Source of the DNA: Raillietiella orientalis
Taxonomy: Eukaryota
NCBI GenBank assembly: GCA_036172245.1
Contig: JAYWIR010000024.1
Coordinates: 2,604,001-2,668,000, forward strand
DNA length: 64,000 nt
Direction of reading: 5' to 3'
The stretch's first letter is position 1; the number at the start of each line of letters is the position of its first letter. The translations under genes were made by a program, and so were the position numbers. Below, one piece after another: positions 6,286 through 40,843 of the stretch. Below the pieces are notes generated by a model. That model was not told the DNA's origin, made no database searches, and saw only the letters and a list, made by a program, of their open reading frames with translations.

Positions 6286-7889
6286 TTATCACCCGGGTGC
6301 GCCGGGGCGTTTATTGAAAAACTATCCGGGAACAGAGTTCCCGGACAAAGGATACAGAGAAGACGAAGGGGGTGGGATCCCCGACACGCAGGTCGGTATA
6401 CCGAAAGTCCGGAACGGGAGGGAGGGGACCACAAATACACTACTATAAAAAAATAAAAAGAAAAATATGGAGGGCAGGGGACAGGGGTCTTTGGTGAGTC
6501 CGTTCCTTCCTTTCCAAACCGGCGATGGATGCCGGCGATCTCTCTCCTTACGTCCTGTGGCAGATGGGCCCACTCGGCAGCCGACGACATGCTTGTGCTG
6601 GCTAATCCGGTGGGCTGACGAAGGATGGCCAGCTTCTCCAACTCTCGGTGGGCCTTGTCGATGGCGCGGGTGCAACACACGGTTGCAACGACAGCACCTA
6701 AAGACAGGCCGCCTGGCGTGAAGAAGCGGCGCATCAAGTCCCTCGCGGTGTCCCCCTGGTGCAGGAGAGCTGAGGCCAGCCTCCGCCACAGTCCTAGGAG
6801 GGCACCGCAGTCCAAGAGCAGGTGCGGGGGCGTTTCCACTTCCCCGCACCGCTTACAGTTTGGGGAGACAACTCCACCGGAGACACGGTTCGTCCGCTGG
6901 TTGGAGTGAAAACCCCAATGCACCAACATGATGACGTCCTGCTTCCACGAAAGGGGGAACACAGAAGTGTTCAAACAGGAGGGAGGGACCACAAGTTCTT
7001 CGGGGGGCACACTCAAGTGTTCACTCCACCGAAAGAGTCCCTTCGAGATGTGGCGAGGCGTGGCGGCGTCTGCCAGCTCGCAAGTCCTCCAGCCGCCAAT
7101 GGGTCGTGTTGTTCCTGCGATGGTGCAGGCGACCTCCCATCTCGCCGGTTCGCAGCTGTCATCTCTTGCCCTGAGGGCTGACAGCACGTCGGCGAGCGGC
7201 GTGACGGCCAGGCGAGTCCACTTCTCCTGGCTGCTGCAGACCTCATCCACCGTGCAGTACGGGGAGAGGTGAACGCAACGGAGTTCCAGGAGGGGAGACA
7301 TCCTGGTGCTTTGCCCAGGCATGCAACGATTCCTGCCGCCAGGCGTCAAAGTTCGTTGGGCGGCAGGAGATCCATTCCTGGGCTGCCAGGAGCCGGTAGA
7401 GCGGTTTCAAGGGGAAACCGAAGCTTCTCGTGGCGCGCTCCGTGTGCGGCCGCAGCGACAGAAGTCCGTCGCTGCCGGTGCAGCGCCGCAGAAGCAGGCG
7501 CGCGGGAGCGCACCACGGAGTGGACCAAAGGTTGGCGCACAGGGCCAACATCCGAAGCTGCACCTGCAGCTCGATTCTCTCCAGTGTCAGGATGCCTAAG
7601 CCAGCATCCCGACGCGGAGCCGCCAAGTCTTTCAGGAGGATCCTGGACCTCGCAGGACCCCACAGAGCGTTCCTCAACAGTCTGTGCGCCTGGAGCTTGG
7701 CCGAGTAGGGGGGCGGGCAAACAAAAAGCAGGGGGCGCAAGAGGGGGGCCACGAAGGTGTTCCATATCGCGGCCCGCTCCGACAGGAGGAACCTGCCATG
7801 CTGGAACGGGCTCAGCGCACTCGTAGCCTTCCGAAGGCAGTCCGACCACACTTCCACTGGGCTGATGTTCCCCAGCGGAACGCCCAGAT
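6286..7889 (-). mobile_element. 5'-truncated L1/Tx1-like non-LTR retrotransposon, copy A (end of RT, zf-RVT-type CCHC region, 3' UTR)
   Basis: Translation starts at YLGVPLG and continues ...ERAAIWNTFVAP...ALWG...LAAPRRDAGLGI... and, after a frameshift, CKRCGEVETPPHLLLDC...W. Flanked by an exact 11-bp TSD aagaagactgt (6275-6285, 7890-7900); 3' end TGATAA, no poly(A). Confidence 0.9.
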
Positions 7890-8058
7890 AAGAAGACTGT
7901 GGTGGCAGTCGGGCGTCAGTGTCTCCCATTCAGCTTATCCTGGGAACAGGCTTGAAGCTGAAGTCGGACTCTGTGCTCCAGAACGAAGGGAAGGAAACTT
8001 TGCCATGGACGTCGCGTGTCCGTTTGAGCACCCGGCAGCGACACCAGAAGAGACAAGA

Positions 8059-8819
8059 CGGATCGCTCGCCCATTCTTTGAACGACTTACTGGAGCTGGT
8101 GCTGCGTAGCCTAGGTGATTCCGAAATCAGTCTTTGCCCACTGCTGGGTCGGTCTTCACGGTCTTAGGCTGAAGCCGGAAGCCCGAATCAAGCAGCCACC
8201 ATCCACTAACGTCCTCTTCCCTTCGTTTCGTCCCTCTTTCCCCCTTCAATCCATCCTTTGAATCTTCAGGGAGCAGTGAAGAACACTGTTGGACTGACTC
8301 CCCGATTCGCCTCTAAAGGAGTGCCTGCAGCAGCAGGAGCGCCGTTGAGATCCTTCGAACGAAGAAGCACCGAGGGAAGATTGAAGATCGCTAAGAGATC
8401 AAGAGGAGCACATCGGGAGTGTTCTCGAACATCGGATATTCCCGAGATAAGTACCGAAAGCAACCAATGGGTCATCTCTTGCACAGGGAGCGCCGTTCAT
8501 TATCCCAGATTGGCAATCAGCTGAAAAGGAGGGGCTGAGACGGTAGGCATGCCATTCCTCCATTTGTTTGTGCCTCTTTTCTTAGCAGGAATGGAATCAG
8601 CAATCTGGATGAAAATTCAAAGGATGGATTGAAGGGGGAAAGAGGGACGAAACGAAGGGAAGAGGACGTTAGTGGATGGTGGCTGCTTGATTCGGGCTTC
8701 CGGCTTCAGCCTAAGACCGTGAAGACCGACCCAGCAGTGGGCAAAGACTGATTTCGGAATCACCTAGGCTACGCAGCACCAGCTCCAGTAAGTCGTTCAA
8801 AGAATGGGCGAGCGATCCG
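8059..8819. repeat. Perfect 205-bp inverted repeat (8059-8263 / 8615-8819) with 351-bp spacer
   Basis: Base-by-base reverse-complement comparison showed no mismatch across the arms; no TSD seen. Confidence 0.95.
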
Positions 8820-11800
8820 ATCACGACGGATGCAAGGAACGCCCGGAAAAATCCCCAGAATGAGCTATGAGGGGGAGGCTCCAAGGAGCGTTTCGAAAGG
8901 AGCTACTCGTCGCTCTGCTGGAGCCGAAGTCTTCCCGATTTCGGCTACCGCCCTCTGACCGCTCGTCGTCCCTTCCCTGCTCAGCGACGCTCCCGAAGCA
9001 ATCTCAGCACCTCTCCGCTCATCTCCCGAGTCTCGTCGCAGCTGCAGAGCCAGGAAAGGCGAAGGCAGGTCGCCGGAGCTTCGAGCTCCATTGCCATGGC
9101 TTCACGTCTGCATCGCCTCCTGAAAGTCCAGCTCTGACGGACGCTGCTCGTTTGGTTTATTTGCACATCTGGAAAGTCCGTTCTTCCGCACAGGGAAGAA
9201 AAAGAAAAAAAAAAAAAAAACAGCTCAAAAAACTCCTCGAGCGTTTCCAAAGGATGCCGGTCATCACGATAATTGTCCTTCCAGAAGCAGGAAGAACCAT
9301 GGAGACGGACGGAGGAGGAGAGACGTGCGAAATAACATCCTCATTTGCGTCGCGAAGAGTAACGGAACAAACCGGCGGAAGGCTGATCGAGTTTTGGGTG
9401 AGTTCGCCGAGAGAACCAGATGCGCCTCTTCGGAGCGCCAGCCTGGAAGCTGGCTCTTCTGAGGAGAGGAGAGCGAGCTTCGGATAATGGGGACCTTCCA
9501 GCGGAGCAGGAGGAGGAGCGGGCGGGGGGAGGAGGGAATTTTTGTTCTCGGAGCAATAAACTGCGATTCCACCTTGGACCGGGCGGAGGCCGGTCCAGAC
9601 ATACGCAAACTTTCGGTTCGGCCGAAGAGCTGACCCAACAGAATCACGATTTCGTAAACAAGGGGATGTAACGATTATCTTCTTGCGTGTTTCCTTTGTG
9701 CCCATGGCAACCTGGCGCCGGGATCGCTTTGTGATGATCCCAGCTTCCCGGCTGGGCGGATCTTTACGAGGTGTCGGAGGAAAGAAAGCTGCTGCTGCTG
9801 GCCGAGCAGCCGAAAGAGGACACTCCAAATACCCTTCGTGTAACGAGGACGAGAAATCTCATCCCTGCCCGGAGCCTTCGCTCACGCCGCGGTACAGTCC
9901 TGAGCCCCGGGGAGGAAGGGGCAAGGCTGAATCCCGGGAAAAGGGGCTGCGAGTTCCATCGGAAGGGGATGGGGATCAAGGGTGCGATTTCCACCTGGCT
10001 CCACGGTTGGGACGACCCTTCGACGGCCCCAGTGCGTTGAGAACTCAGGGATGTCCGCTGCGACCACACACCCCTTTCCCACACAGAGATGGGCGGAAAA
10101 TGGCGGTCCGTTGCCGTGATCGAGCCTCCCCGCTTCCTCGGCCCGCCGCTCTCTTGCGAGTAGCGAAAGCTTAGTTTTCCGTCCTCCTCCTCTCGCCCCG
10201 GGAGGAGCCGGAGAGATGCCGACTTATCCTCCTGTTGCCGTCGCCCCCCTCCCGAGCTCCGACCAATGTCGGCGATCTTTCAGTGGGCGCCTTTTGGTTT
10301 CCTCTCCATTTGCCGTCCGCGTTGGTCCTGCTTTTTCCGAGAGGGAAGATGAGCCCGTCCGGGATCCTCCGGACCAAGAAACCCTGCGTGGCGGCGGTTC
10401 TGCTTCGCCTCGCGCTCTTGTCGACAGGAGCTTTTCCTGCTCTCCGCACCTTACGCGCTTCGAGATGTCGCCGCCGCTGGACCCGGGGCCCCCTCCAGCG
10501 TTCTCTTCCCACCTCCGCGAGCGTGGACTCTCCCTTCCGCCGCGCGCTTAGCCCGATCTCCCAACGGATTTGCGCCGCAGCCGAACGGGTGGGGGGGGAG
10601 GGGGGATTTCGATTTTTCCGTCTCCCGAGTGCGCGCACTCCTTCGCGAGGTGGCGCTGCTGCTACCGGAGCGGCCGGACTCGGTCCTCGTCTCTCTGATA
10701 CCTTCTAGCTTTCTCCTCCTACCATCCCTCCTCCCCGAGCGCGGCGCCATTGCTAAGGACAACTGCGTGCTCATCCCGAGTCGTCGTCGATTCCTGATGA
10801 ACTTGGTCACCTGCGAAGCGGAAACCCTCATCCAAAAAACTCCCTTTTTCTCCTCTCCCCTCGCCCTCTCTCCCTGTTTTTCTTTTTCTCTCTCTCTCTT
10901 TCCTCTCAAAAAGCCTCCCATCCGGGACCGGCCTTCTCAGCATTTCCTGCAGCCTCTCTGCACGCACCTTCCTCACAAAGCGCTTCGAAATCGGAAGTCT
11001 CTCCCCCCCCCCCCCCCCCACTCGTTTTCAATACTCTCGAATTCTCGAAGGTGTGGGCGTGTCCACCCATGCCCATAAGAAGCTTTTTCGGTTGTTTTGC
11101 GTTTAATTAGAGCGCCCTCGCAGAGTTCGGCGCCGGCAGGCCATGCGGATCCGCGGCTGCTCTGCCGTTCCATCTTTGGTTTACCTTTTATCTCCGTCGC
11201 ATGACTTAGGGAACGAGGTGGCCGCTGAGTGCAATTAGCCCCGTCGCTCTGACGTGCAATCAGATCAGCTGCGAGCCAAAAAAAAGAGGAAAGGGAAAGA
11301 AAGGCAGTGGATGGTGCGCCACTTGGAGATGCGTCCCTGATGCTGACGACGACGCACGTAGGAGCCAGGAGCCCCGTGTTGTCTTCGCGGAATGACCGCT
11401 ATCTTCATTCGGTGGCACTCGAGTCCTCTCGAACGCGGATCGGCATTCCGCATCCGGAATCCTCTCCGGAGAGCACGCGCGTCGGTGCCACCGTCGTCGT
11501 CGTCGTCGTCAAGTGGATTCGCGGATGATCACGAAAGGGTCGAAACGGCCCGCATGGCGCAGGCAGCCTCTAGCCGTCCTTGTCTTGTCTTGTCAGACCG
11601 GACCTGTGATCCGCAGAAATCACGTGTCAAAACACGCTGACTCTTGGTGCATCAGCCGAAGAGGGACCGCATGAACGAGGCGAGCGCAGCCGCCACTCTG
11701 GATTGCACCAGAGAGCAAGGGTTGGTTGGGTCCGCAGACCGAAGGCCCTCGAAGATGGCGTTCTGCTTCTCTGTGGCTCCGCTTGCTAAGGGAGCGCGGA

Positions 11801-12551
11801 GAGGGTGACTACTAGAATACGTGTCTGCATTCCTGTGGCTGGCAGAAACATGGACAAGAATGGAGGTGAAGCGGTACGAGTTCCCTTGAGGGCACAGAAG
11901 GGGAAAAGGGAGGGGGGGGAAGGAATCACCTTTTTGCGGCCAGCCAGCATCATTTGGTCTGAAAGCACCTGGATGAGAGGTGATTGAGGGCTGGGCAAAG
12001 CACAGAGAAAGATGCATCTTCAATTGATAGAATTTGCCTGAACCATCTTCTGCGATTTTTTTTTTCTTTTTTGATTGCAGCGTGTGGAATGCATGAAGGT
12101 CGCCCAGCCTCTCTTGTCACACACTCCCAGCTCCCACTTCGGCAATCGGAAAGAACCACGGATGTTGAGAGCAAGAAACGTGCAGCTCGAGAAAGGACTC
12201 TCTGGAAGGGAACCGGGCGCGTCGAAGTGGCAGCAGGTTCCGCCTCAGGCCTTTGCTGCAGGATGGAACGATCCCGTGTCGGAGAACAAGTCGATGAGGC
12301 GTGGTGGTGAAGAACGTCTACGCGTCCCTCGATGCGTAGACGTCCGTCACGACAAGCCAGATTGAGTCAGATCTCTTCAGTAGAAGTTGGTCCACCGGTC
12401 CGTACTCATCGAAGATAACGGTCCCTTTCGACCCAGTCACTTGCAGATCCCAAACTCTTGCTGTTCTTCGGAGCATCCTCCTCTAATCCGGAACGAGCCA
12501 GGGCTATCGGGAAGATTACTCCCTCGCGGCTTGCCTCGCCTCTTTCCCCAG

Positions 12552-12722
12552 GATGCCACACTGTCTTGGAGCAGCGCTCGAGAGTCCTCACTTCACCGGT
12601 CTTCGGTGTGCTTCCTTACCCCCAACAGCCTGGTCTTCAATTACCCCATCAGGAATCCCAGAGGGACGCCTCTGTCCCTGATCTTCTATCAACTGGACTT
12701 GAGCGACAGCGACTTTGTCCAG
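12552..12722 (+). pseudogene. Orphan CUB-domain exon (uninflatable/cubilin-like), frameshifted
   Basis: Pyrimidine tract plus cag acceptor, donor CAG|gtgata. Removing one C from a C5 run gives GCHTVLEQRSRVLTSPVFGVLPYPNSLVFNYPIRNPRGTPLSLIFYQLDLSDSDFVQ, matching the CUB pattern C..L....G.LTSP..P.YPN...C.Y.I.......L.F..D...DFVQ; G/C-ending codons. Confidence 0.7.
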
Positions 12723-13874
12723 GTGATAAACTCTGGTTGCACGGAAGGCGGAAGAAAGGAGAGAGGTGAAGGGTGGGTGCAGACTTTAGTGAAGGCAAGG
12801 TCGGGAGACCTGGGGATGAAGCGCTGCACTGGAAGGACTGGTCAGCGATTCCTCCCGGAGAATCTGGAGTTTCGTCTCGTGACCGACTTTCAGGGCGTTT
12901 CCCGCTGCTAGCTTCCCAGTCTCATCTGTTCTCCTCCCCTCTCCCCCCCCCCGTGTCAGTGACACATTTCCTCTCCTTTCCCCACCATTCCCCATCTCTC
13001 CGTTTCGTGATGGTGCCGAGGATGCATCCAGCGCATGCGCCAGCGGTCAATGGAGAGAAAAATCTGCATAGCGACTATCCCCTGCGGCATCATCATGCGT
13101 GTCTGCCGGGATCGGCACCGCGGCGAAAATAGTGCGGACTGTTTTGAGATGAGAAGACACGCTTCCCTCAAAAGGAAAACAAATGGCAATCAATGGTCCC
13201 TCTTCTGCTGATGCACCAGGAGTCAGCGTGTTTTGACACGTGATTTCTGCAGATTACAGGTTCGGTCGGACAAGACAAGGCAAGGACGGCCAGAGGCTAT
13301 GGAAACAAAACTGGTGTCAACCTAATAAAAGTTACGTATGGAGAGCAGTAAATATCCGGGAGGAGGAGGCGCGAACAACAAGGAGGACAAGACGAATCAC
13401 TGGGAGACAGGAGTCGCTGCAAACGTGGCCCACGGGCTCTGAAACTGTCGCGGGCTCCAAAGCCCATCAGCCGTGCATTCGCTCGGTGGGCCTCCTCCTC
13501 TCCCGGTGAAGGCGGTTCTGCAACGAAAAACCGTGGGTGTTGAGGAGCGTCCAGCCTCCGCACTCCTGCGCGCTGAGCTGGATTCCAGAGAGCCATCTTT
13601 TTCCCCCTTCTTCTCCTTTTTCCCTTGTCAGGAGTCCATGTGAAATGGGATTCGAAGGACCTCTACATAATTACTCCCCATGCACATACCAGAGTCTTCT
13701 TTCTCTATTTTTTTTTTTTATAAAAGGCTAGTAGAGACCTCACGGGAAGATCGTTGCTATGGGCCTAGAATGATGAAAATCTTTTGGAGTTCTTTTGTTT
13801 TCGCTGTCTTCCTTCCAGCTTTTTCTTTTCGGTTGCTGTTGTTGTTGTTTGGGGTGGAAGTGGGGGATGAGAGA

Positions 13875-14650
13875 GGTTCGCCAAGTGCTGAAGAAGTGTC
13901 TGCTCCTCAGGAGGGGTGGGGTGAGGAGAGGGGAGGTCACAAAGCTCTTTGACACTGTCCACACCACCCGAGAGTGCGTATATCTCCTTCAGTTATAGGG
14001 ATAACCACCTTGGGACCACCCTATGGATCTAGGAAGGCTCCAGAATCTCCACTCCGCCCCTCTTTGGCCTGATAGGGAAACTCCGATTCCTTATTCCTTA
14101 TTCTCTCCAGAGAGATCCCCCAGTTTGTGTGGGCCAATCCTCACTACTTCTCCGAGGGGAACCTGGAAAGAATCCGCTCCTGGAATTTCTTCTCCGGTGG
14201 AAACCCGCAAGGGAACCGGTTTAATCCTGGTTTAATCCTCTGAAGGAAATCCCAAAGAAAGGCTTCCGAATTTCTCTGAAGAGCCGCTCCCCGAAGAGGG
14301 AGCAGCACGTTTCTTGCACTCTGGAGAGACAATCCCCCGAGGGGGCTATCAACCAGCTCCATGGCACACGATGATACAGCTCCCTTTTCAGAATCGGAGG
14401 GGAACCCCCAAGCGCTCCTTGATTCCCAGAAGCACTCCGGAGGGTCGACTTCCGATCCCGACCAGTCAACGGGAGCATCCGGCTTCCACCAGTGCCGCAT
14501 CTGAATGATGCAACCAGCGTTATCCTGTAGGGAGGACTCGAAACCCACGACGCACCCATTTCTGGACGTCGATTTTCCATGTGGTGGTTCGAACCCGCGA
14601 CGTTCGGTGCCACACGCGGAGACCACAGCCACGCGGCCACCAGCACCAGC
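13875..14650 (-). mobile_element. tRNA-headed SINE, apparently full length (about 780 bp), copy 1
   Basis: Head tggccgcgtgg (A-box-like) ... gggttcgaacc (B box, 14586-14596); body aligns by eye with four other copies; a (CAA)n-rich run follows at about 13836-13850. Confidence 0.75.
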
Positions 14651-16834
14651 TTAAGAGACACGCAAGGCGTGGTTCCCGAAGAGTCTACGGTACTCTGAGA
14701 GCCCAAGGGGAAAGGGTGAACACCGGCGCGCACGATGGCCACGTGGAAGAGCGAGAAGGTTAGGAGAGGGGGAAGCAGTGAGTCAAATAAATAAATAAGG
14801 AAGGCAAGGGATGGGAGCAGCTCCCAGCGCTGCCGCCATCTTTTTTCCACAACGTGCGTGAAATGCAGGAGGCGTTCTCCGCCCCCTGTTCCAGGTGGAG
14901 CCGTTCCTCCATCCTCCTCATCATGAAAGAGTCGAAGTGCATCTCTACGAGAAGTAGGGACCGTATCCCAGAACTAAGTTGGAAACCGCTGCAAGCTGTG
15001 ATCTCTGGTTGCATCTCGCAGAGGAGCATCAGGAAAAGTGAGAAGAAAACAAGAATGGAGTTCTTATAAAGTACTTCCCCCATGCCAGCAAGAGCTGGTC
15101 CTGAGGACGGAAAATCTCCCGGTGAACGGAATCCGTGGGGCACAGTCCCCACGTCCGAGGCGTGGTTGGGATCGGAGCAAGAGAAAAACACTTTTTTTTT
15201 TTTTTTTTGCTTTTTCTGTTTTCATTTTCCTCCGAACGCGACCAGGACGAGAACGCTCGCTACCTGTCTCCTGCATAAGCACCATCAGCGAGGTCGCGTA
15301 TCAAGATCATTTGGTTGATCATCTCCATAGCAATTAGTGAAGCGAGGCGAAGAGCAAACTCGACCGGTTCTCAATCTCCTTGGGACATCACGTTCGGTAC
15401 CAGAATACGGTTCTCTGGATGGTTTAGCCGGAAAAGAAAGGAACCAGGTTTAACCAAGAGACCAGCTTCGGAATGTCACCTATAGTGGTCATTGCAGCTT
15501 TGAAGCTATGCCTGGAGGGGTCCGGCATGGACGTGATTCCCATCATCACTTCTTTTATCGAGATGATGACGAGATGGTCGCACCTGTCGAAATGTAACGA
15601 GAAGCTTCCGGAATCCTCCCGAGAATGCAAAGGACGCTCGGGAACCCTCTGTGACCCCTTATTTTGCCCCCCACTCCGAAAGATACACTCGTCCTTATTT
15701 CATATTTTTATTTTCTCCTCCTTCTCTCATTTTCCCTTAAGCGGATCTCTCTGGGCAGGCTGCCTGTTAGCAGGGGCACCCTCTCGTCATGAACGAGAGT
15801 AGGGGGACGGGTAACCATCTCTATGCACGGGTAACGATCTTTCTTTTCATCAAGAGTCCTTACCTGTAAACAATATTTTAGAATAAAAGAGCCGGATTCG
15901 CCAGGTGAAAATAGGTGCTGCCTAGCGCGAGACCAGTCGCTGCCTCGCACACTAAGTCACTTCATATGAAGCACCCTTGCCTCTTACAGGGAAAGTCATG
16001 ATGCCTCGGTAGGGTGTCGACAAGTGGTGGACTAAGGTTTTCCTGCAATCCGGCATCTGGTCTGGAGTCCACTCTCCTTTCAGACCGCGTCTCATCCCGC
16101 ACCCTGCAACGAAACTCGGGCAGCAATCTTGGATGTCTTCTGCCCGTTAGAGGGCACGTCAGCACAATTCGGGGAGTCCCAAGAGAGAAAGAAAAAACAA
16201 ATGTGCAGATCGTAGTCGCTGGACTCGCGGGGGTATGCCGAGCCACTCAAAGAGCTCGTGGTGTCCCGGTCGATTCAGAGAGAATCTTAGAAGCAACCCG
16301 AAGGTGCCTCTAAGATTTGCTACGACAGCGATATCGATTGGACTCATCCTCTGAGAAACCCACCTGATGGAGATTCGGGTCCACCTTCAGAACTTCAGGA
16401 AGAATTGCCTAAGGGTGGAGTCGAGGAAGGTCTAGAAACGCCTTTGCAGGTTCGACCCAGTGAGGCTTCTCCAAGCGAACGTTCGAAAGACATTGGACGA
16501 TGCGCGGAGGTGATCGAGGCAGGGGAAGAACTTGAGGAATTTCTTTATGAGCTTTCTGAAAAAAGACTGAGAGCACCACTGAGAGCCATGTCTGAAAGCA
16601 GATGCGTCAGGATCGAAAGCTCGGCCGGACCTTCTACGATCGGTTTTCATGAGGAGGCTGCGCTAGTTGAGGGATCTTTGACTTCGAGCCGGAATTCATC
16701 CGATGCTTCTATACCGGGAGATGTGAACGTTTCAGAACGACATTTCTTTTTCTGATGCATTTTGCCTGTTTCTTTCGAATCTTTGATTGCCCTAATACTC
16801 CCGTCTTTCCCTGGGTTCCAGGACCACGGAGATC

Positions 16835-20570: not shown

Positions 20571-20611
20571 AAGCATAACTTCAAGTCCCGGTAGGACTTG
20601 AAGTTATGCTT
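20571..20611. repeat. Perfect hairpin, 18-bp arms with 5-nt loop
   Basis: aagcataacttcaagtcc-cggta-ggacttgaagttatgctt. Confidence 0.95.
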
Positions 20612-28100: not shown

Positions 28101-31100
28101 ATCAAATCATCACATTCACTTGTGATATTTCGCATTGTATCTTTCTGTAAGAAATCCCTTCTTGTTCCTTTACTGTGAAAGTTTGAAAGTTGGTTCCATT
28201 TAGTTATATGATTTATTTATATGCATGGAATGAATGTTAACATTTTTCATACATAACCCAATCATATGTAGACCATTCTTAAAATCTAGTTGTCTTCCCA
28301 ACAAAATGCTGCAAACACATGTACTGAGATAATGTTAACCCTTAAATATGTTACTGGACATCCCAACAGGAAACTTTAACCCTGAGCTCTTATTTGTTGA
28401 ACAATTTTTTCAAGTATTTGTCAGAATAGAAAACGAGAATTATAGCAATAATCGCCAATTCTTTACAAATTGCTACATAATCCTTATTCATTATATGACA
28501 ACTGTTCATCATCAAAAAGTATCAGCAGTTGTACTTGAAATGCTAAATTTTCATAGTCACCAATTCAAATCTCTTCACCTTTCCCAGCTTTCCCTTGAGA
28601 TTGAAAAGAGAATCCACAGTTTCAGTTCTTTTAAGCTGTTATTTTGTTTACATTATGATTTCTCAAGTTTAAAGGAGAACCAATACAATAGTTTTTGTCA
28701 CAAAGTCTTCAGTAGCCATACCTAACAATGGTAGGTTGTAACTAATAAACAGTCACTGTGAAATGCTAACTAAATTCCTGCACACAAAATTTTACACTTT
28801 TATTTTTTTTACTTTCCTATTTGTAATATTACCATGAATATTTACATGAATTGACTACATTTAGAATAATAAAAAAACTGACAAATAGAATTTTCAGGAG
28901 CAGTGCTCATAACTCTCATATAGAATTACCTGTGAACTGTAGTTTAAACACTATCCTCAACAGATTTTAGATAATTACATGAATACTACCTGGGACTAAT
29001 ATTTCTACTTTTCCACGTATCAACAAATTATAAAATAATGATGATTTGGGACTGAAATCCTTCTATACAGACCAATACATAATGCACACAGTTTGTAGTA
29101 CATGAAGCTTCTATTCTAAACAAGTCGATACATAAATACTTGTCTTTTAATAGTGAATTAATGCAACAGTATGTTGAAGCATATCAACCAAAGATGCATT
29201 CTTCTAGCCTGATGTGTAAAAACCTGACTGAAATTAAAGACAAACTTATATTTGCAGAAAAACAAAACAGTACTATCAAATAACATTTTTGCTGAAGTGG
29301 TGGCAATAAATACGCAAATTAGAATTAAGTTTACTCAACAACTGCCACCAAAGTGAGATCTAAGTGCCAAACTCTTCAAAGGTGAAAAAAATTTCAAACT
29401 TCAATAACTTAGGCTCAGGAGAATAGAATAAGTTCATATATGCATGAAACATCCACTCTTAATTCTGCATAAATACAAGAAAATCTCAAAAACAAAATGT
29501 CAATCAAAATTTCCTTTCTACATAGGATACAATATGGCAAAGCTCCTTTAACAACTTTGATATTTTGTATCCCTAAGGAACTAACAAACCCTTGAAAAAA
29601 CTCAAAAATTACATAAGCAATACCAGTATCAAACTCACAGATATCATTTCAAAAGAGTATTGCAAGCTAAGTACTTTTTCCATATTACATTTTTCCTTTT
29701 ATGTTTTCGTAAATTACAAAACACTATACATAGAGAGATGTCAAAGAATAAATTCCCTTGTAACAACAGCCGATGTCATTTTTCTCTTATTCGTACTATC
29801 ACACAATAGTATTCTTATACCATCTTCACACTATTGGCACGAAATCTTTACATATACAATTCGTACGGTAACGAATAATCAATCTTGCATCTCCATTCGA
29901 CATGGAAAATGCACTCAGCATTGAACTAGCAACCAACTTCATTCTCATATTAAAGGTCTCTGCCTAATTCTCTTAAAACTGGAAATCACACAAACATGGA
30001 ATGATTCAATGGCATAATTGAAAGCACAAATCTCTGAGATATGAACACAGAATTGAGGACTAATGCAGCATTCCTGAGATGAAGATACCATATTGGAAAG
30101 TATGATTTGACAGATGGTTTTGTTGCAATGTCCATATCCCTAGGAGCATTTCGGCTACAATAAAAGAGAAAGGAAATCAAAGTAAATTAAAAATGATGCA
30201 TTGATAGCATGCTATCGACATTTTTTCGTTGGTTTTCCAAATGCAAAACGTTTTATCACAAGGATATACTGTAATTTGTGGTAAAACATTTGCAATCGTA
30301 ACCATCACTTTTTCACTATTTCAAGAGTAAGAACTCGTGTAAAGCGATAAGGTAAACCTAATACGCTTATGAGTCCAATGTTCCTCCATATTGAGAGTAC
30401 CAGATCACCTATGCAAATAAAAATAAAAAAATACCAGATCACCTGACAGCTTTATAACATCAATTCACAACTTGCTTAAGTCACAATATTGAAATTCAGC
30501 TTACTTCATCTGCTCTTTTGTTCATGAACAAAAAATTTCATCGTGATGCACAGCATTCACAGAAACACTTTCATTAACCTCTGGACAAAATTTGTGCAGA
30601 GATTTTTCAAACAGTTTTTTGAAAGAGGATGCGAAGGTGCATTCGATTAATTAGGATTACACTCCAAATCTGGAAATATCTTTTAACCCGTCCCATGATT
30701 CTTTGATTTATTCGTTTCTATGATGTCAGTCTGTGGCCCTCGGTTGAAGCAGAAGTAGATCAGATTGCATACTACTGAAGAAATAGATTAGACACCAGAA
30801 TGGAATATATATTACTGGACTGCAATCTAATATTTCAACTGGATGGGTAAACTAGCTCCAAAATGCTACGCTAGAAGATGTGGACATTATTTTGTAGTCA
30901 AACGTCCACAGTTTAAAATAGAATACACTAAAGTAGAAAAAAGATGTAATTTCCATAGCTCGGCACTCCTGAAATACAGTGTTGATTTCGATCTGAGGTT
31001 GGCTAATTTTCAAAGTTAATTTTTGTTTGAGAATCTGAAGCAAAAGATGCTCAGCAGGCACGCGCTCAGTTCATTGATTCGAATGAGTGATTTTCGCATA

Positions 31101-34100
31101 AATTCGAATGCACTCAAATGGCAACTGTTCTTCTTAACACATTGAGATGATCTATATTTTCCTCATCCAGGATTGGAATGCATCCTTCCCACCTCTGTGT
31201 CCCTATTTGGTCCGTTTGTGTTGCACTTCCGCTTTTACAGAACGAAGGAACGAAGTGTGCTCCGAAGCACGCCTCGCCGCGACGTCTCTTCAGCAAGGTG
31301 CTTTTGCCGAGCTTCTACAGATATGGGAGCTCTTCCCATTTATGACAGCAAATCCCCAGAGAGAACACACGGGGAAGCAACCAGATTTCGAAATTAGTGG
31401 ATGAAAGAAGTGGGGAGAATGATTTCTTCCCTAGGAAATCGGGGACAGATCTGGTCTTCCAGAAGCTGCAGAGCAAGTCATGAAATCTATTTCTGAATAG
31501 GTACACGCATGAACGTCGAGGTGAATGCCACCAAGGTAGCGGCATCCTCATCCAAAAGTGAGATATCGATTTCGTTTATAACTGGCATCCAGGAAGTGCC
31601 GACTCGCCGGCTGGCGTATGTGAAATTGCATACATATGTACACCGCACGTTTTGAAAGGGACTCCTCTAAGTAGAAAGAGAAAGAGAACTTTTGTCTTTT
31701 CTTCCTCCTCCCCCCAACGCACAGTCACAAGGCGTGGAAGAGGAGAAGTGAAATATGGTTCATCTGTTGATAAACGCTCCTTGAAATGTTCCACAAGATG
31801 AACAAAGTCCACGAGCAACGGAGGGTCTTGATCGGGGTCATGGAACTGCCCGCCGCACACGCAAGTTGGCAATTACTGTGGACCCTCTCTCGTTAAGCTT
31901 TGGAGCTCCCCCCGTCGTGATTGTGCTATGCGGCTTCAGCAGCACAAGGCGAGAGGTGCTTCGACCAATGACACTTTCTCTGTCGCTCACCCTCATGGAG
32001 TCCAGGCGAACTGCACGCTTCGCCGATTCCCAATGAGCCAAGAAACTTCTGAGATTTCGCAGATTTTCCCATACATATTGCTGATTTGCACCTCGAGTGG
32101 CTATTTGAGTGGGTAGGGCCTTGGACAAGGAGACCGGTAAACATGTCTTGGGTATGAGATGTCCATCAGGAGCCTTGCCTCGAGTGCTACAGGGTGGAAA
32201 ACTCTACATACAGATCTGTCTTCTGCATCCGGGATGCAGTGTTCTTTGACAGGCAGGAGAGACCCAAAGAGACTTGCAGTTCCATTCTGAGCACCGTTCG
32301 AAGACCTCCCCGTTGTCGTGGAATATTTGTTCATAGTGAAACTTCTAAATTTGCTTTCCATAATTTGATACATTAAGCACATTTCCTCTAGAATAGATGC
32401 CTATGTACGAAGCTCATTTCAAAAGTAATGGCCGAATGGCCATAAAGGAAGAACAAATAAGAGAAACCAAAATGTATTGGTGGCTCCAGACACAAGCATC
32501 CCCATGTCATTTTTCTACATGGTCACCAGTTTTTCCCAAACACTTTGGATACCGTGGAACGAGCTTTTTGAAACCATCTGCATAAAATTCCTCCGCCTGG
32601 GAGTTCAGCCAGTTCAGAGCTGCAGTTTTCAGCTCCTCCTCACTTTGGGAAAAAAACATGGCGACTACCTAGAAAAATGACATATTGACGCATGTGTTTA
32701 GAATACATACACTGATACATTTTTGCTTCTCTCGTCTGTTCTTTCTTTATATCCGATCGACCCTTACTTTTGAAATTCGTACTTTTTCTGGTCCCAAATG
32801 ACGTGATTCACCGGAGCTTGACACGGATTAGCAAAGAAATGGGCTAAATTCTTTGTCCCTTCCTACGCTCAGTCATACATTCGGGACTTCCGTTTGGGTA
32901 CTGAAAGAGCCCATATCGAAGTTCTTTTGCGTTATCTTCAGAATCGTCGACCTCGGTAAAGATGCGAAGCGGGGTCTGAGGGCTGGAATCCCAAAGGTGA
33001 TTTTTTGATTCTCTGGCTGCTGGTTCCATCTACTTGATAAGGAGTCGAGCGGAACGAAATGCAGAAGCGATTTCCTTTGGAGAAGAGAAACCTTGAAAGT
33101 TGCGTATGGAGTAGCAGAATCACTTGTTTTCAGCTGCACTGATAGTTTGACTCCTCTCTTGCCTGACCCGAAGCTCCCGTAAGAACTAAGAGTGGTTCTC
33201 GATAGCAAAATATCGGAAATATCCTTCCACTGAGTACCAAGGCAGGCACCACGATTCCGACATCTCTGTTTCTCTCTCTCTATATATATATATACAAGAA
33301 AAGAACTTACGTTTGGTTCTTGACATTCTTTCATCTAAAGCGCTCCCTGGTGCCTTGGAGGCATTCCAGATGGCTATCTCAGAATTTCATATTTCATTGG
33401 AACTTTCATCTTGTAGAGATTTCTGTAACATTTTCTGTAGGGCTTTGTGTCCCCAGAGAGAAGTTCCCAGCGAGAAGAGGGTAGCAGAGGTTGCTTCTCG
33501 GAGGACCGGCCTCCAGGCAAGAGCTAAAGAAGCTGGTGGTGAAATGGGACTGCAGACACTTTTATAGCACAATTTCATACTATTCGTAATCATAGTGACC
33601 TTTCCTTTTGTTTTCTAACGATTTGGGGAATGAAATGGTTCTCTTTGGTGAAATTTCAAGCATGTATCGATCTTTATCTCTACATCTCCAAAAATTTCTT
33701 CGTTTCGTCAGAGCAGTTGTTATTTACTCAGAATTTCTTATCCACGTGACCGCGCTTGAGTTTCTGGCAAGTACTTCACTACTGTAAGCAGAGAGCTCCT
33801 CGATCTTTCGTGATTTCATGCCAATGAACTTTCTGCCTTTAACGCGTAGGAAGGGGGAAATCCAATCAGGAATTTTTTGCGAAAAAAACCCGAAAATGAA
33901 AGCTGTGATTCGAGTCCGATTTCAGAAGCAAAGAACTGTCATGGACGGTGCAAATAGAATCTTACACGGGATTCAAGTATGTAGGTACAAGTCGTTTTGG
34001 AAAATGAGGATGGCTTCCCAGTGAAGCGAAGGTGAGCCATGGAAGAGAGCGGGCAAGACGGGGAGGTTGGTGAATGGACGTGTTGCTAGGGTCAGCTCTC

Positions 34101-35079
34101 GTAGCATTTCCAGCGACCAGCCACCGGGAAGGAAAGGAAGGAGCAAAAAGTCCTTGGGACTGGGTCACCGATCGAAACCCAACGAACGTTCAGGGTGCTC
34201 CATCTGACGACGTGAACACCCCATGTAGGATGTCGCAGAGGTTGCTGACGTCTGATCCTACGAGGGCACCGCGTGCCCGTTGGTGGAAACGAACGTTGCA
34301 TGCGTCTGGGGAGCCCGTAGGCAAACTTTGAAACTTTTCACATGCCGAATTGGATTTGATTTTCCTATAAAAGATGAAGAATCAGCAGATCAATTCCAGG
34401 CGTTCTCCATGAAAAGAAAAAAGCTTCTCGTGAAGTTTCAGAGTACATGGAAAGATGATGGGGGAATAACCTTAAACTGAAAATTCTCCCCATGATAAAT
34501 CGGGACAGCCAGTAGTCTGGAAGCTACACGCAGCACCAAATGGCAATTCACTGCCTAATCATAATGCGAAATTTCCAAGTAAATAATTAGCAAATAAATG
34601 ATGGCAAACGATGTGAGAAATGCACGATCATCGTCCACAAAATCAAACAAGTCCGGTCGCAACCAGACAACCCTGATCCAGTTGTGTTTATGGTTATTCG
34701 AACCTAGATCCCTCACTTTTTCTCTACCTTAGACTGGAAACTAAACATTCACAAGAACCCCGAAGAGCATGCACACTCCTGTTTTAGAGTTCTGGTGCGT
34801 TTTCCTGAGACCTTTCTGACGTTTGAAAGTCACAGATTACCTAGTGATGATAAGGCATTAAATGGGTGAATTCGGGTTTGTGGAGCCTTTTTGTCAAAAT
34901 TCATCTATATTTAAAAGACCTGTGTACAGACATTGGAAGATTTCACAATGCATCACGATGAGCTGAAAGCTTTCTAAAAAAAAGGAAAAAGAAAAAAAAT
35001 GACGCTATTTATTTAGGTTGCATTACCTTGAATACTCTTTAAGGTTTCATATTCTTCCTTAGCAGCATCTTTGGTGGTT

Positions 35080-35220
35080 CTACGAATAATGATCATGCCT
35101 ATGCGCAACATACATCCTCAAGCACTCCATCCACTTTGCTCATTATATGCACTCAGATCCACCATTAAGAACTTTTCCCGTCGCTATTTGCACTCATCTG
35201 ATCTTCCTCATAATTCATGA
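35080..35220 (-). mobile_element. Highly decayed LINE AP-endonuclease fragment (RTE-like)
   Basis: Frameshifted KVLNGG/DLSA/HIMSKVDGVLEDVC resembles the GGDLNAHVG motif. Confidence 0.3.
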
Positions 35221-35861
35221 CAATCAACTGTTCATTGATCCTCACATCCTCTGCCTATGTGGATAGAACGTAAAGTACGAATCCAATCCTAGATACGAAA
35301 GAGAATTATTCCGAATTCATGAATACTCCCGTTTCGGCACTATTTAATTTTGCTTCTTATAATACGACAATTTCGCCGAAACTCCCTTTGACTTTGCAGC
35401 TCCCGAATGCAAACATCAGACCTAACTTGGTCCGGAGGCTGCAAACGGTCCGTGTCCTTCGTGTAGATCGCACACGCTACCTGCAGCGGACACTTGAACC
35501 TTCTTCGAATACGAAGGCAACAACGTGACCATTCGGAGACTTTTCAATCAAAAGGGCTGATCCACTTAGTCACAAAGCCATTCAGTGTAGCAATTCATCT
35601 TTCTTGAAATGATGCATGTTTGTTTCCCGTGAGTGATAATGATCATTCCACAACAAAAAAATGATGACGTAACATCGAAACGGTCTGTTTCCCAGCAGAA
35701 GATTGCCATCCGCTATTCCCCACAAACAAATCAACAGGTGCATTCGTTGACACGCAGATAGGAACTGAAGTTGCCGTCATCGACGTGGTTGTTTGTCAGC
35801 CTCACTCCCGCTGGCTTCCTCCGTTTGTTTTTTTTGCTTTTCTTCGGATTTTCCTTTTTTT

Positions 35862-37946
35862 GGTTCTCCGAGTACCTCAAGAGCCATCGCGCGCCAGGGG
35901 CGAACAGCTCTTTCGCACTGTTCCACGCCACCCGAGGGTGAGTGTAATTCTTCAGGATAGAGGGTACCCCGGGTAACCGCCCTATGAATCCAGGAAGGAC
36001 TCCAGGGAAGGGAGTTCGTTCCTCTCACTCCTGGGGAGGGATCTTCGAAGAGAGTCTCCTTCCTTAGTTCCCCCGGAGGGACCTCTGGAGGGGTCTGCTC
36101 CATTTTTCTTCTCCCAAGGAAACCTGGAAAGGATCCTCTAGTAGAGATTTCTTCTCTGGAGGTGCTCAGCGTCGGGACGCTGGTCTCGGCCTCCTGACTC
36201 TGGATGGAAAATCAGCTGCGGTTGCGAACCTTGGCCATTGCAGAGACGTTGTGGAGTACCCCATGATGCGTTCCAGCACGTCTCTTTGCCAGCCGTGAGG
36301 CCGGAAGGAAAGGACTCGCATCTTTTTTCTCGTGCTTTCGCTCCAAGATGCGAAGATGCGATCTCCTCCTGGGTCGCATGGTTACCCTGGAGAAGGAGAA
36401 CGACTGGATGGTCTTCTGCCCCAACAACTCTATCTCATGGCTAGAAGAAACAGTTGGCGAGTAGGCGGAGATCCACGAGACGAGAACCGAGAAATGGAAC
36501 TGCCTGAGATTCGGCAACCACGCCCACTGTTTGCTCCGAGAGGTCCAGGAGTCTCCTGGCAGGAGCACGTGAGCGGAGATGACCCCCCTCGCTGCAACAC
36601 TGCTCTTTCTGAGGAGGGCAGTAGGCAGCAGCCAAGTTGGAAGCTTGCTGCAAGATTGTAGTCAAAAAGTTGATGAGTGTTTGGACCACGGGACAGCTGG
36701 AGGACACAGCGACCCGTAGGGTCCCTCCACGAGGAATACAGCGCTGGGTCGAGCTGCTCGGCATTTCATCAGAAGACCTGGAGTGTCCCCCAGTGATGAA
36801 GGACACGAGCACCTTCCCCTGAAGTGGCAGGAGTCGTCGCTGCTGCTGTTGCGCTGGGGCTTCCTCTGCAACGCACACCGATACCATTGGACTCTGGGGA
36901 GGGTAAATCTGGACTGTGGCTGGTCTGGGTAACGGGAATCCCTCCTGCATTGTGAACAGTGGACTGTGCTGCCCTCCGGCCCCTATGGGAACGTTTTGCA
37001 ACGACCCTCCGGATTCCGGTTGGCAGTCCCCCCAGGGACGTTTCATGTCTCCTCTGAGTGTGGGACGCTCTGCAGCTAAACGCAGTCCCAGCAGCACTTT
37101 GCTACATCAGCAGGATTGTGGTGGCATGGAGCGAAGCCGACAGAGGAAGAAACGGGAGGGGCACCGTCCAGTTCGCCGTTCGCTTCCTGCGGATGACGGC
37201 AAGATGGCTCCAGCTGGAAATTAGCCGGACGGACCTTGCTGGCATCCTGGAACGGATGCAGACTCCGTCCAGCTGGCAGTGATCCCCTTACCGCCCCTCC
37301 CAAATGTTTTTGTTTATTTTTATTTTTTTTTCATTTTCGTTTTCTCCCCTTCTTCTCCGCTGCCGAGGCGACCCCTGCCGGTCTACGCACCGGTGACCCG
37401 GCAGGTCCATTGTTGAGTTGGCCGTAGTAGGGCCTCGTGCCACGAAAGTTGTGAGTTTATTTTCATCAATAAGCGCCCTTGCACGACCGGGTGATAACTC
37501 CGGAGGGAACCCGCAAGGGAACCGCTCCCTCTTTCCTCCTCTGAAGAGAACCACGAAGGGATGCCTTCGAAATTTCTCAGAAGGGCGCTTCCCCGAAGGG
37601 AACAGGCACGCTTCTCTGCACTCTGGAGAGGTACCACAACTACTCCATGATACGAGACGGAGGGCGCTCCCGAAGGGGGGTCCACTCCTTTGCACGACCA
37701 GAGGGAAACTACCCACTCCTTGATTCTGTTTCCTGGAAGGTCGATTCCCAATCCCGGCCACTCATCGGGGGCATCCGGTTTGCACCGCTACCAGTGGAGC
37801 ACCCGAATGAATGGAAGCCAACCAGAGTCATCTTGCGGGGGAAACTCGAACCCACGGTTCACACAACTGGGTTCGGCGTCGATTCTTGTCGAGTGTCCGC
37901 GGTGCCACGCGCGGACACCGCGACCACGTGGCCTCCAACGCGGGCA
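35862..37946 (-). mobile_element. tRNA-headed SINE copy 2, split by retrotransposon copy B (pieces 37498-37946 and 35862-36162)
   Basis: The two pieces rejoin collinearly with copy 1 across the 9-bp TSD; an A-rich tail follows. Confidence 0.75.
36163..37497 (+). mobile_element. 5'-truncated L1/Tx1-like retrotransposon, copy B, inserted antisense into a SINE
   Basis: Starts at RRDAGLGLLTL (homologous to copy A), degraded CCHC region, ends gaccgggTGATAA; 9-bp TSD ctctggagg (36154-36162) / ctccggagg (37498-37506). Confidence 0.85.
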
Positions 37947-38240
37947 AGGATGCATGTTGTTTCAAAAACCGTTGTTTCTCATTTCCTCCGTTTCCGACGC
38001 GTGGGAGGAGATGCTTACGAGCTTCCGTGAAACCAGACGTGAGCATTACACGAGCATTTTCACGTTTCTGGAGGATGTTGACAAGGGAACAAAAATTTAT
38101 GGAGCTCCGACCTCGTAAGAGCTCTCCTGTCGCCAATTTCATCGGAATTCGTTGCTTGCATCTTTGGCATCAATGGGAAATAGAAGATTGAATGATAGAG
38201 CCATTCCGTTAAGACTCGAAATCACAGAAGAAACAACACT

Positions 38241-39861
38241 GCCCCGCGTTGGCGGCTGTGTGGCAGCGGTCTCCACGCGTGGTACCACGCGTTGCAAGCT
38301 CGAAACCCCACGTGGAGATCGACGCTGAGAAATGGGCACCTCGAGTTGCCCTCGTAGGATGACGCGGGTTGGCCTATTCGGGTGCGGCACTGGTTGACAG
38401 CTGGTCACCGGGACGTTCATTTATAAAAAATAAACGTCTGTGGCAGGACGTTTGATCCTGCCACGTTACTTATGGATACGAAAAGGAACCTGCCGGGAAC
38501 TGGCACGCAGGCCACCGGGTCGGCTCCTGGGCAGCACAGGGGAAGGGGAGACAAACAAAAAGAAAACAAAAATAAAACAGCCAAAAAAGTAGGGAGAGGA
38601 GCGTGATTCGAGAAGAGATCGCTGTCTGCTGGAGGGCGTTCTCTGCATTCTTGTAAGGATGCCAGCAAGTTCCTGTTTTATGGTTCCCAGATGGGGCCAT
38701 CTTGACGCTGTCCACATGAAGAGGACAGCCAAAAAAATGGGTTCCTGTCGTTCCGGCCTCCTCTGGTGTTGCCCCATGCAGCCATGATCCAGCGTAGGCA
38801 GCAAAGTGCTGCTAGGGATGGGGCCAGCGTGAGGGAGTCGTACAGGAAGAGACGCTTCAGGAGGTTTGTGGGGTTGCCCTCGAGGATTCCAGGACGCTTT
38901 ACCGTGCCATTTGCGGTTGCGGCAAGGAGCCAAAGGGTAACACAGTTTACTAGGAGGTGCGGGAAGGATTCCCGCTCCCCGTACCTTACACAGTTTGGGC
39001 TCACACACACCCGTGTCCACAGATGCTGGTGGGCGTTGCACGAGAGGCCCCCGTGCAGCGGCATCAATGCCGACTCCTGCCACTTTAAGGGGAGGGTGCG
39101 GGTGTTCATAAGCACCGAGGGCCACTGCAGATCTTTCTCCAGAATACCCAGAGCAAAAGTCCACGAGGTCGAGCACTCGGGGTCACAGAGTCAGTGAGCT
39201 GGCTCGTCGTCGACTCGCCCAGTCCTTTTCCCCTTACGGAGATTTCCACAGTAACCTCCCATCTAGCCATAAGGATGCTGTCTATGGGCTCCCTAAGGGA
39301 GGGCAGATCGGTGTACATCGGAAGCCGGATGCCTGTTGATTGGTCGGGATCGGAAGTTGATCCCCAGGGTTCCTTCTAGGAATCAAAGAGCCGGTTCTCC
39401 TCGGGGTTTCCTTTCCGGTTTTGAAAATGGAGCCGTATCAACGAGCTGGTTGATTGATTCCTCTCCAGAGTGTCAAGAAGCGCTCTGCTCTCTCCGGGGA
39501 CTGGCCCTTCAGAGAAATCTGGAAGCATCCCTTCAAAGTTCTCTTGAGAGGAGGAAACAAGAAGTGGATCCTTTTAGGGTTCTTTCGGAGAAGAAATGAG
39601 CAGCAGATCCCACAAACCTATAGGGATCCCTTTGGAGAGAACAAGGGCGAGAATTCCCTTTAGGGTTTCCTCCCAAGAGTAAGAGGAACAGATTCCTTCC
39701 TTTGAAGCCTTCCTGGATTCATAGGATGGTACCCTCCCGAAGTACCCCCCCTAAATTGAAGAGTTGACACGCACCTTCGGGTCGCGTGGACGGTGTTTAA
39801 AGGGCTTCGTGAGTCCTTGGGCGAACGACCCTGGGTGCTTAGCGAGGCAAAAAAAAAAAAA
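38241..39861 (+). mobile_element. tRNA-headed SINE copy 3, split by retrotransposon copy C (pieces 38241-38393 and about 39322-39861)
   Basis: ...gtgcggcactgg | aagccggatg... rejoins the copy 1 sequence gatgcggcactggtggaagccggatg; ends in an A run at 39849-39861. Confidence 0.75.
38394..39309 (-). mobile_element. 5'-truncated L1/Tx1-like retrotransposon, copy C, inserted antisense into a SINE
   Basis: VSPNCVRYGERESFPHLLVNCVTLW matches copy A VSPNCKRCGEVETPPHLLLDC; ends gaccagcTGTCAA; only a degenerate TSD (ggtgcggcactgg / ggtgtacatcgg), so the 5' boundary is approximate. Confidence 0.8.
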
Positions 39862-39904
39862 CAGAAAACTAAAGAGCTTTCCAGATTTCCAGCATCCTGG
39901 ACCA

Positions 39905-40843
39905 CTCCCTTTGAGCCAGTGCTTCCCTCCCTGAGGGACCCAAGGGACAGCATAATCTCGGCAATGTGGGAAGTGATTTCCTGCATAGCAGCAAAGAGGA
40001 AACTTCTGGGGGCGTGGACAACTCGGGAGGTGACGGACTCTGCGATTTCGAGTGTCCCAACCCAAGGACTTCCACACCGGGGAGACCTGCTCGGCATTCC
40101 TCCGGAGGAGGCGAAGTGGCCTCCAGCACACTGGAATCGTAGCGCCTTCCCCCGGAAGTGGCAGGAGTTGTGTTGCTGGTGGTGCAAGGGGGAATGCAGT
40201 GCAAAGAGTGCCTTCGCCACTGGACACGTGGATGCTTAGTGCAGCAGGTGCGGGAGGAAGTAAACTCCTCGCACCTGCTGTTGGACTGTGCTGCCTTCCG
40301 ACCACTTTGGAATCTCCTCGAGACGATCCTAGGAACCCCGGGGGTGGGAGACCCCAGCGAAATTTTCAGACGCTTCTTCGTGCGTGGTACTGCACTGTCG
40401 CCGGCCACGTCCCTCGCAGCTTCCTCCTCCTATCTCCGCGGGATCGCAGCGGCCTGAAACGCCAGAATAAGAGACCGAAATGGCAGGGATGCCATCCACT
40501 GGGTGTGGATCTTCCTGAAGAGCGCCTCGAGATGACCTCACCTGGGAGCTACACGGATGGAACTTGCCAGCATCCTGAACAGGATGTAGAGGACACCTGG
40601 CAGCGTACCGTGATCCCTTCCTCGAGCCCTCCCCTCCCCGTGTATAATTTCCCCTCCCCCATTTCGTGTGTTTATTTTTTTGGTGTGTTTTTGTTTCCCC
40701 TTCCCCCACGCTGCCGAAGCGGACCTCCTCGGTCTGCGAATCGACCTTCGGCAGGTCCATTAGATGTAGAACCAACGGTTCGACCACACCAATATATTTT
40801 TATTTCTTTATGTGATAAATGGCTCGGCACGACCGTGTGATAA
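39905..40843 (+). mobile_element. 5'-truncated L1/Tx1-like retrotransposon, copy D
   Basis: EEVNSSHLLLDCAAFRPLW...IFRRFF matches the other copies; ends gaccgtgTGATAA; probable TSD catcctggacca (39893-39904) / cattctgggcca (40845-40856), 10 of 12 identical. Confidence 0.85.

Follow-up and report, generated by a model that had tools for sequence, protein, structure and literature searches.

The four copies of a long interspersed nuclear element (LINE) family found in a 64,000-nt stretch of the Raillietiella orientalis genome (JAYWIR010000024.1, 2,604,001–2,668,000, forward strand; hereafter the window, whose positions are used throughout) end in a structured 3′ tail. We propose, with a probability of about 0.6, that this tail acts like the signal of a stringent-type LINE, in which a terminal hairpin, P3, would set the start of reverse transcription and an upstream hexaloop hairpin, P1, would be accessory. 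The copies A, B, C and D are 5′-truncated 3′ ends of a single family. They match the C-terminal part of open reading frame 2 (ORF2) and were assigned to four distinct sub-lineages. Among the copies of the sub-lineages the 5′ truncation points vary, which indicates that the insertions are independent. In the sense direction, the ORF2 stop codon is followed by tracts rich in U and C, by P1 and by a further hairpin, P2, which is longer and variable; a U-rich linker then leads to AAUAAA, P3 and the end. The preliminary description of the window had reported the P1 hairpins of all four copies and the outer CTGCC...GGCAG stems of B, C and D, and all of them are present at the positions given in Table 1. 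The best-conserved element of the tail, AATAAA with the terminal hairpin, had not been flagged in that first reading.

The terminal module of the 3′ tail

Tails were compared among copies of this family and of a sister family, all from this one genome. The tails of A, B, C and D gave 1015, 905, 1104 and 419 candidate places, respectively; from each set, 40 were scored and 30 fetched. The sample comprises 266 distinct 3′ ends, which fall into 69 clusters; 24 of these clusters hold more than one copy. The tip of the lineages is made up of AATAAA, 3 nt, the hairpin CCCGG-N5-CCGGG (P3) and exactly 6 nt ending in AA. AATAAA is found in the consensus of 23 of the 24 multi-copy lineages, at a fixed distance of 24 nt from the end. 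The AATAAA–P3 tip is the most constant part of the tail and better conserved than P1. Part of the lineage sample was picked by the terminal motif itself; the module is also present in all 20 ends that were chosen by similarity of the ORF2 protein alone (13 and 7 from two match lists, the 13 from the lower-ranked part). Exact matches in the genome numbered 439 for one terminal pattern and 191 for a variant pattern, with none in the reversed controls.

The terminal A run is 2 or 3 nt long in 205 of 207 ends and never exceeds 4 nt, and the poly(A) tail characteristic of insertions by relaxed, mammalian-type L1 elements is not seen at these ends. This implies that the start of reverse transcription must be fixed by something. 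A duplication-like match was detected in 35 of 140 copies of the A–D sub-lineages, but five of these matches are artefacts or come from tandem copies. Sub-lineage A provides 21 clean, non-tandem cases, and in them the duplication starts directly after the terminal AA, with a leftward ambiguity of 0–2 nt. The ends of the sister family carry AATAAA, a hairpin and 1–5 As, and the upper stem of this hairpin covaries (CCC/GGG, CCG/CGG, TCG/CGG). The lower P3 pair at −22/−5 was also considered as a covarying pair and was not counted (C-G in 171 of 224 ends, U-G in 17, U·U in 18 and U-A in only 3). Tiny insertions consisting of only the last 30–50 nt of the tail were noticed at L038:1088(−), L051:1754(−) and L009:2835(+); they are consistent with copying begun at a fixed 3′ end.

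The P1 hairpin

A loose P1 pattern (CTRCGN loop, at least 4 closing pairs) occurs 11 times in the window, compared with 4.1 ± 2.0 times in 200 block shuffles. The loose pattern has a rate of about 0.005 per strand of 150 nt, and chance does not account for its occurrence at one and the same place in all four homologous tails. A covariance model built from 40 other copies retrieved exactly the sites A–D at 43.5–57.6 bits, the next hit scoring 16.4.

Forty-four representatives had a full 3′ untranslated region (UTR), and 40 of them were aligned; L222 (no P1), L232 (P1 not located) and L165 and L226 (shifted register) were omitted. Of 199 cells of the 5-bp P1 stem, 87.9% are paired; column shuffling gives 79.7 ± 1.2% (0 of 500 shuffles) and sliding the stem gives 15–51%. 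The value of 87.9% is inflated, since the script that locates P1 rewards pairing and 4 of the 44 representatives were excluded. The loop-closing pair is C-G in 23 of the 40 rows, U-A in 12, G-C in one, U-G in one and unpaired in three. On a tree built without the hairpin columns its two sides change 10 and 9 times, respectively, and the pair as a unit changes only 11 times. The coupling of this pair, 0.89, is the highest among 603 comparably variable column pairs (mean 0.28 ± 0.15) and the third highest of 1970 overall. Because the closing pair changes in step on the tree, selection on the P1 hairpin is supported, by one pair, and the earlier proposal of a selected RNA element is upheld to this extent. 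The stem persists across the 40 representatives. Part of the stem and loop variation among A–D, however, is decay in single copies and not covariation: the loop of the B lineage is CTGCGT in 23 of 34 copies, as opposed to CTACGC in copy B, and the consensus of the D lineage has an outer C-G pair in place of the T-A pair of copy D.

The second hairpin had been described as unrelated in sequence among the copies. It is present in A, C and D as P2; these hairpins are positionally homologous, and B carries a degenerate form. P2 exceeds shuffled sequences (z < −2) in 20 of 43 representatives. The outer CTGCC/GGCAG stem was rejected as a family-wide feature: it is paired in 55% over the 40 rows and is found only in the B/C/D clade. 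A conserved motif directly after the C-rich tract, at 6407–6417 (−) in copy A and at equivalent places 5′ of P1, is common to lineages with and without this outer stem. An asymmetry of G-U over A-C mismatches was looked for, and the counts (3 versus 1) were too small to tell. Long-range pairing of the P1 3′ arm with the P3 5′ arm, which appears in single-sequence folds, was rejected as a conserved state because the 3′ arm covaries with the 5′ arm of P1 itself and P3 is fixed.

The P1 loop begins at a variable distance of 56–118 nt before AATAAA, and it has the sequence CUGCGN in most lineages. Among the 20 protein-chosen ends a CUGCG-like hexaloop was found in 10, a pentaloop of other sequence in 9 and an unrelated hexaloop in one. 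The stem is retained by eye in these ends and is decayed in places. P1 was found in none of 27 ends of the sister family; six loci of that family were also scanned with the covariance model. Since some lineages have replaced or lost the hexaloop, it is probably not the core recognition signal. By analogy with the tails of stringent LINEs, a role of P1 as a recognition signal for the reverse transcriptase (RT) is plausible.

The host LINE family

The host family appears to be a high-copy, divergent LINE of the L1/Tx1 group in an animal genome; the many Wnt loci of this genome mark the host as an animal. Full-length members encode an ORF2 that is about 1200 aa long and carries both an APE endonuclease and an RT domain. 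Exo_endo_phos and RVT_1 scored above the cut-off in three of three full-length ORF2s, and zf-RVT, the C-terminal cysteine motif, only below it. The best PDB match of ORF2 is human L1 ORF2p (E 1e-43). A pattern search located a CCHC-spaced motif in the upstream ORF of most full-length copies; Pfam gave no hits for the two ORF1s of the family that were scanned, and a zf-CCHC hit in the sister family. Among 8000 public proteins scored there were 69 hits, all of them at most 30% identical. Twelve matches to the terminal pattern were found in metagenomes, none with ORF2 similarity nearby.

In the RT tree the family pairs with the sister family of the same genome with a support of 98 in the Shimodaira–Hasegawa-like approximate likelihood-ratio test (SH-aLRT), at an ORF2 identity of 25–30%. 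The two form their own branch among L1/Tx1-like proteins, in a set without a labelled Tx1 reference. The sister family (L131–L150, for example G000:C71:68500-98499) has many intact ORF2s of about 1200 aa and occurs in head-to-tail arrays with a spacing of about 5.5 kb.

Target preference

The flanks of three sub-lineages often lie within one repeat, designated R, at fixed sites: 19 of 31 flanks for B (15 of them at one base), 23 of 27 for C and 8 of 30 for D. For sub-lineage A the count is 2 of 45. The bases that follow the terminal AA are target sequence and are specific to the sub-lineage. At the junction of sub-lineage A, positions 2–4 are C in 42, A in 44 and a purine in 44 of 45 cases; the junction of sub-lineage D reads TCATC, with 25–30 of 31 at each position. 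The target-site duplications open with a 3–5-nt motif typical of each sub-lineage. This target preference of the sub-lineages, as read from their flanks, is Tx1-like behaviour.

Repeat R is an interspersed repeat of about 1 kb, with a small inverted repeat at one end followed by an A/T-rich run. In addition to the uninterrupted copy listed in Table 1, the window contains interrupted copies at 35900–37860 and 38250–40905 and fragments at 60750–61080 and 63520–64000. Many young copies of the LINE family are inserted in antisense orientation into the endonuclease-coding start of their own family's ORF2 (3′ flanks of L032, L034, L036, L038, L042, L047, L052 and L195).

Proposed mechanism and alternatives

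We propose that the transcript would be an ordinary RNA polymerase II RNA that is cleaved and polyadenylated just past P3. ORF2p would bind the tail with P3 as the core handle. Target-primed reverse transcription would begin at a fixed distance from P3, and no more than a couple of A residues would be copied. The poly(A) would thus be missing because the start of reverse transcription is fixed relative to P3, and not because of self-cleavage. P1 with its CUGCGN loop would be an accessory protein-binding stem-loop, recognised by ORF2p, ORF1p or a host factor in the ribonucleoprotein. It may improve the selection of the element's own RNA in most sub-lineages, and it could change its loop or be lost altogether.

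In addition to the inflated pairing value given above, several observations weigh against this proposal. Covariation exceeds the tree-aware background in only one of the five P1 pairs; pairs 35:48 and 37:46 do not rise above background, ranking 605 and 842 among 1970 column pairs, and the remaining two vary too little for testing. The support from thermodynamics is weak: the RNAalifold energy is only −0.5 kcal/mol, the full P1 appears in the minimum-energy fold of two of six sense-strand tails, and the z-scores of the tails are −2.0 for A, −0.7 for B and −1.7 for D. The CUGCG-type loop is absent from 10 of the 20 protein-chosen ends, and one cluster of eight copies has the 5′ arm of P1 without the 3′ arm (all seven extended copies of this cluster have degraded ORF2 sequence upstream). 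The P3 stem is nearly invariant within the family, and the evidence for its pairing comes mainly from the sister family. Finally, AATAAA and P3 might act in 3′ processing by the host and not for ORF2p.

This last point can be extended to the whole tail, whose hairpins would then act in host RNA metabolism (choice of the cleavage and polyadenylation site, stability, export or translation) instead of recognition by ORF2p, the exact end resulting from cleavage at a constant site, with priming on the first As. The constant position of AATAAA in an animal host speaks for such a role, as do the U- and C-rich tracts, which resemble those of L1 3′ UTRs of fish, frog and lizard (PMC5381506). However, vertebrate L1s with AATAAA copy poly(A) according to the same source, whereas nearly all ends here stop at 2–3 As, and we consider the host-metabolism explanation unlikely on the whole, although it and the stringent-tail proposal are not mutually exclusive. 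A different extension concerns the target motifs. The RNA tail of this animal L1/Tx1-group lineage might be both ruler and guide, the target motif being inherited from the landing site of the master copy. AAUAAA and P3 would direct cleavage to a point a few bases inside the flank of the donor copy itself, the docked ORF2p would start 6 nt past P3, and the read-through bases would pair with the nicked primer. The motifs of the sub-lineages (NCAR in A, TCATC in D and CCAG in C) would then not arise from changes of the endonuclease. The motifs seem to lie on only one side of the nick, that of the primer, as this guide model predicts; endonuclease preference is a possible source of them as well, and we regard the guide model as rather improbable.

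Other explanations concern the hairpins themselves. Contact of the P1 loop (UGCG) with the P3 loop (CRYR) in a kissing interaction would make the tail one tertiary unit, and all four positions can pair in 11 of 21 hexaloop lineages, mostly through G-U-compatible variation. Yet P3 loops permuted among lineages score alike (71 versus 70.5, P = 0.47), so there is no covariation between the two loops, and the contact is impossible in the pentaloop clade; such an interaction is very doubtful. Equally hard to sustain is the idea that P1 is neutral inheritance, a near-palindromic CCGG repeat passed on by descent. Four of its five pairs are mostly invariant C-G or G-C, several lineages have mismatches and one has lost P1, all of which would fit neutrality, but the closing pair shows repeated coupled changes and the stem persists despite diverging flanks and spacing, even with a wholly different loop. 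A self-cleaving ribozyme that produces the 3′ end lacking poly(A), or a 3′-end formation module at P1, had been put forward in the preliminary description. A 2′,3′-cyclic-phosphate end would render a poly(A) signal pointless, and a canonical one is conserved here. The ends are exact and tailless, as such a ribozyme would leave them, and LINE ribozymes are known, but those described in the accessible source text are 5′-end cases (R2, L1Tc, human L1 5′ UTR). Rfam gave no ribozyme match at permissive E-values, and none otherwise relevant, for the window, the B and C tails or 20 lineage tails, P1 included. Moreover, P1 lies at a variable distance from AATAAA and is lost in one lineage, and the end is fixed 6 nt after P3, downstream of the poly(A) signal. 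Self-cleavage is therefore a most improbable explanation of the missing poly(A), and a role of P1 as a 3′-end module is not supported.

Comparison with known systems

L1-clade elements are the textbook poly(A)-recognising, or relaxed, LINEs, and the stringent tails of L2 elements end in a terminal microsatellite repeat. The ORF2p of ZfL2 binds its own 3′ stem-loop, tolerating exchange of the stem and not changes of the loop (PMC4176376). The tail described here resembles those of ZfL2-1, ZfL2-2 and eel UnaL2 in having a stem-loop in the 3′ UTR near the start of reverse transcription, with an exchangeable stem and a loop that is conserved, here in most lineages (PMC4176376). It differs in belonging to the L1/Tx1 group, in its three hairpins, in the AATAAA directly before the last hairpin, in the putative nature of ORF2p binding and in the absence of a terminal microsatellite repeat. 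By this analogy the tail resembles a stringent-type LINE tail to which ORF2p putatively binds.

Hairpin tails with compensatory changes are already known from L1-clade elements of monocots and of a green alga. The monocot LINE1-1_ZM, with ZmSINE2/3, and L1-1_CR of Chlamydomonas have a conserved 3′ hairpin with compensatory changes and were proposed to be stringent (Ohshima 2012, PMC3472496), where tailless L1 families are listed as well. The family studied here shares with them the L1-type element and the compensatory changes in a 3′ hairpin; as far as the accessible text goes, it is set apart by its animal host, the lack of poly(A) and a different loop (UCU in the plant and algal elements). 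No partner short interspersed nuclear element (SINE) sharing the tail was noticed among the 266 distinct ends, in which no directed search for one was made.

Insertion into fixed sites of other repeats is described for Tx1L, which inserts into Tx1D (PMC1919474), and for crocodilian Tx1-Mar, which inserts into Mariner-N4 (PMC4494074). Like these Tx1-group LINEs, the present family has two ORFs, an APE endonuclease and fixed sites in another repeat or in related LINEs. A comparable tail architecture was not seen in the accessible portions of these two papers, and the identity of the family to any public protein found is at most 30%, its placement coming from a set without a labelled Tx1 reference. 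In R2Bm binding involves a small core of the 3′ UTR, and the start is set through 3′ homology (PMC10499050); R1Bm requires downstream target sequence, as cited in PMC7265360. Both share with the present family an exact 3′ junction without long poly(A) and a structured 3′ UTR, and they illustrate that the start can be determined by downstream target sequence present in the RNA. They belong to other clades and are specific for ribosomal DNA, in contrast to the short target motifs found here, which differ by sub-lineage. L1 3′ UTRs of non-mammalian vertebrates end in AATAAA and poly(A) (PMC5381506), whereas the present family has a hairpin after AATAAA and copies no tail.

The combination of AATAAA, a terminal hairpin, a fixed 6-nt end and no poly(A) in an animal L1/Tx1 family was not found in the literature covered, which was incomplete, with most subscription papers and Repbase outside it. 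The hexaloop hairpin taken alone is an ordinary type of signal. Plants and algae supplied the cases from which stringent tails within the L1 clade were proposed (PMC3472496). An animal L1/Tx1-group family in high copy number, whose ORF2s are intact, whose end is exact and tailless and whose tail occurs in dozens of natural variants, would offer a ready test system for the question whether ancestral L1s read a structured tail, and for the origin of the fixed start of reverse transcription and of short target motifs. These points are also relevant to retrotransposon-based gene insertion.

Features of the window

The positions of the four copies and of their tail elements are listed in Table 1. 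The boundaries of copy A are defined by an 11-bp target duplication, and its ORF2 part is 90–92% identical to the full-length ORF2 of L202 (tblastn). The 5′ end of copy D is approximate.

Table 1. Positions of the LINE copies, their tail elements and repeat R in the window
Feature	Position	Strand	Remarks
Target-site duplication of A, 3′ copy	6275–6285	−	5′ copy at 7890–7900
LINE copy A	6286–7889	−	5′-truncated; C-terminal ~470 aa of ORF2 with one frameshift, and 3′ UTR; young sub-lineage
P3 terminal hairpin of A	6292–6306	−	5 bp, 5-nt loop; followed by 6-nt end 6291–6286
AATAAA poly(A) signal of A	6310–6315	−	
P2 hairpin of A	6325–6345	−	
P1 hexaloop hairpin of A	6381–6396	−	5 bp, loop CUGCGU
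Repeat R, uninterrupted ~1-kb copy	13700–14650		Target sites: B 14192, C about 14484, D 13773
Imperfect 9-bp duplication flanking B	36154–36162 / 37498–37506		
LINE copy B	36163–37497	+	5′-truncated; degraded ORF2 end (stop 37280–37282) and 3′ UTR; within repeat R
Outer stem and P1 of B	37360–37404	+	Stem 37360–37368 / 37398–37404; P1 37378–37393 inside
Tail end of B	37420–37497	+	Degenerate P2 37420–37443; decayed poly(A) signal 37468–37473
Decayed P3 of B	37477–37491	+	Copy end 37497
LINE copy C	38394–39320	−	5′-truncated, degraded; within repeat R
Tail end of C	38394–38464	−	P2 38440–38464; decayed poly(A) signal 38416–38421
Decayed P3 of C	38400–38412	−	Copy end 38394
Outer stem and P1 of C	38490–38534	−	Stem 38526–38534 / 38490–38496; P1 38501–38514 inside
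LINE copy D	39900–40843	+	5′-truncated; degraded ORF2 end (stop 40611–40613) and 3′ UTR; within repeat R
Outer stem and P1 of D	40711–40754	+	Stem 40711–40719 / 40747–40754; P1 40729–40744 inside
Tail end of D	40769–40843	+	P2 core 40769–40781; decayed poly(A) signal 40814–40819
Decayed P3 of D	40823–40837	+	Copy end 40843

A possible fifth tail, heavily decayed, lies at 15690–15910 (+); it has a pyrimidine tract, AATAAA and a P3-like end, and lacks both a P1 hit and an upstream match to ORF2. A lone fragment at 12333–12443 (−) matches the endonuclease region of the family ORF2. Directly upstream of copy A, a 210-bp inverted duplication with 99.5% identity is located at 8059–8268 and 8610–8819. 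Direct duplications are present at 57931–58230 and 61929–62226 (95% identity) and at 60746–61076 and 63592–63923 (91% identity), the latter consisting of repeat R sequence.

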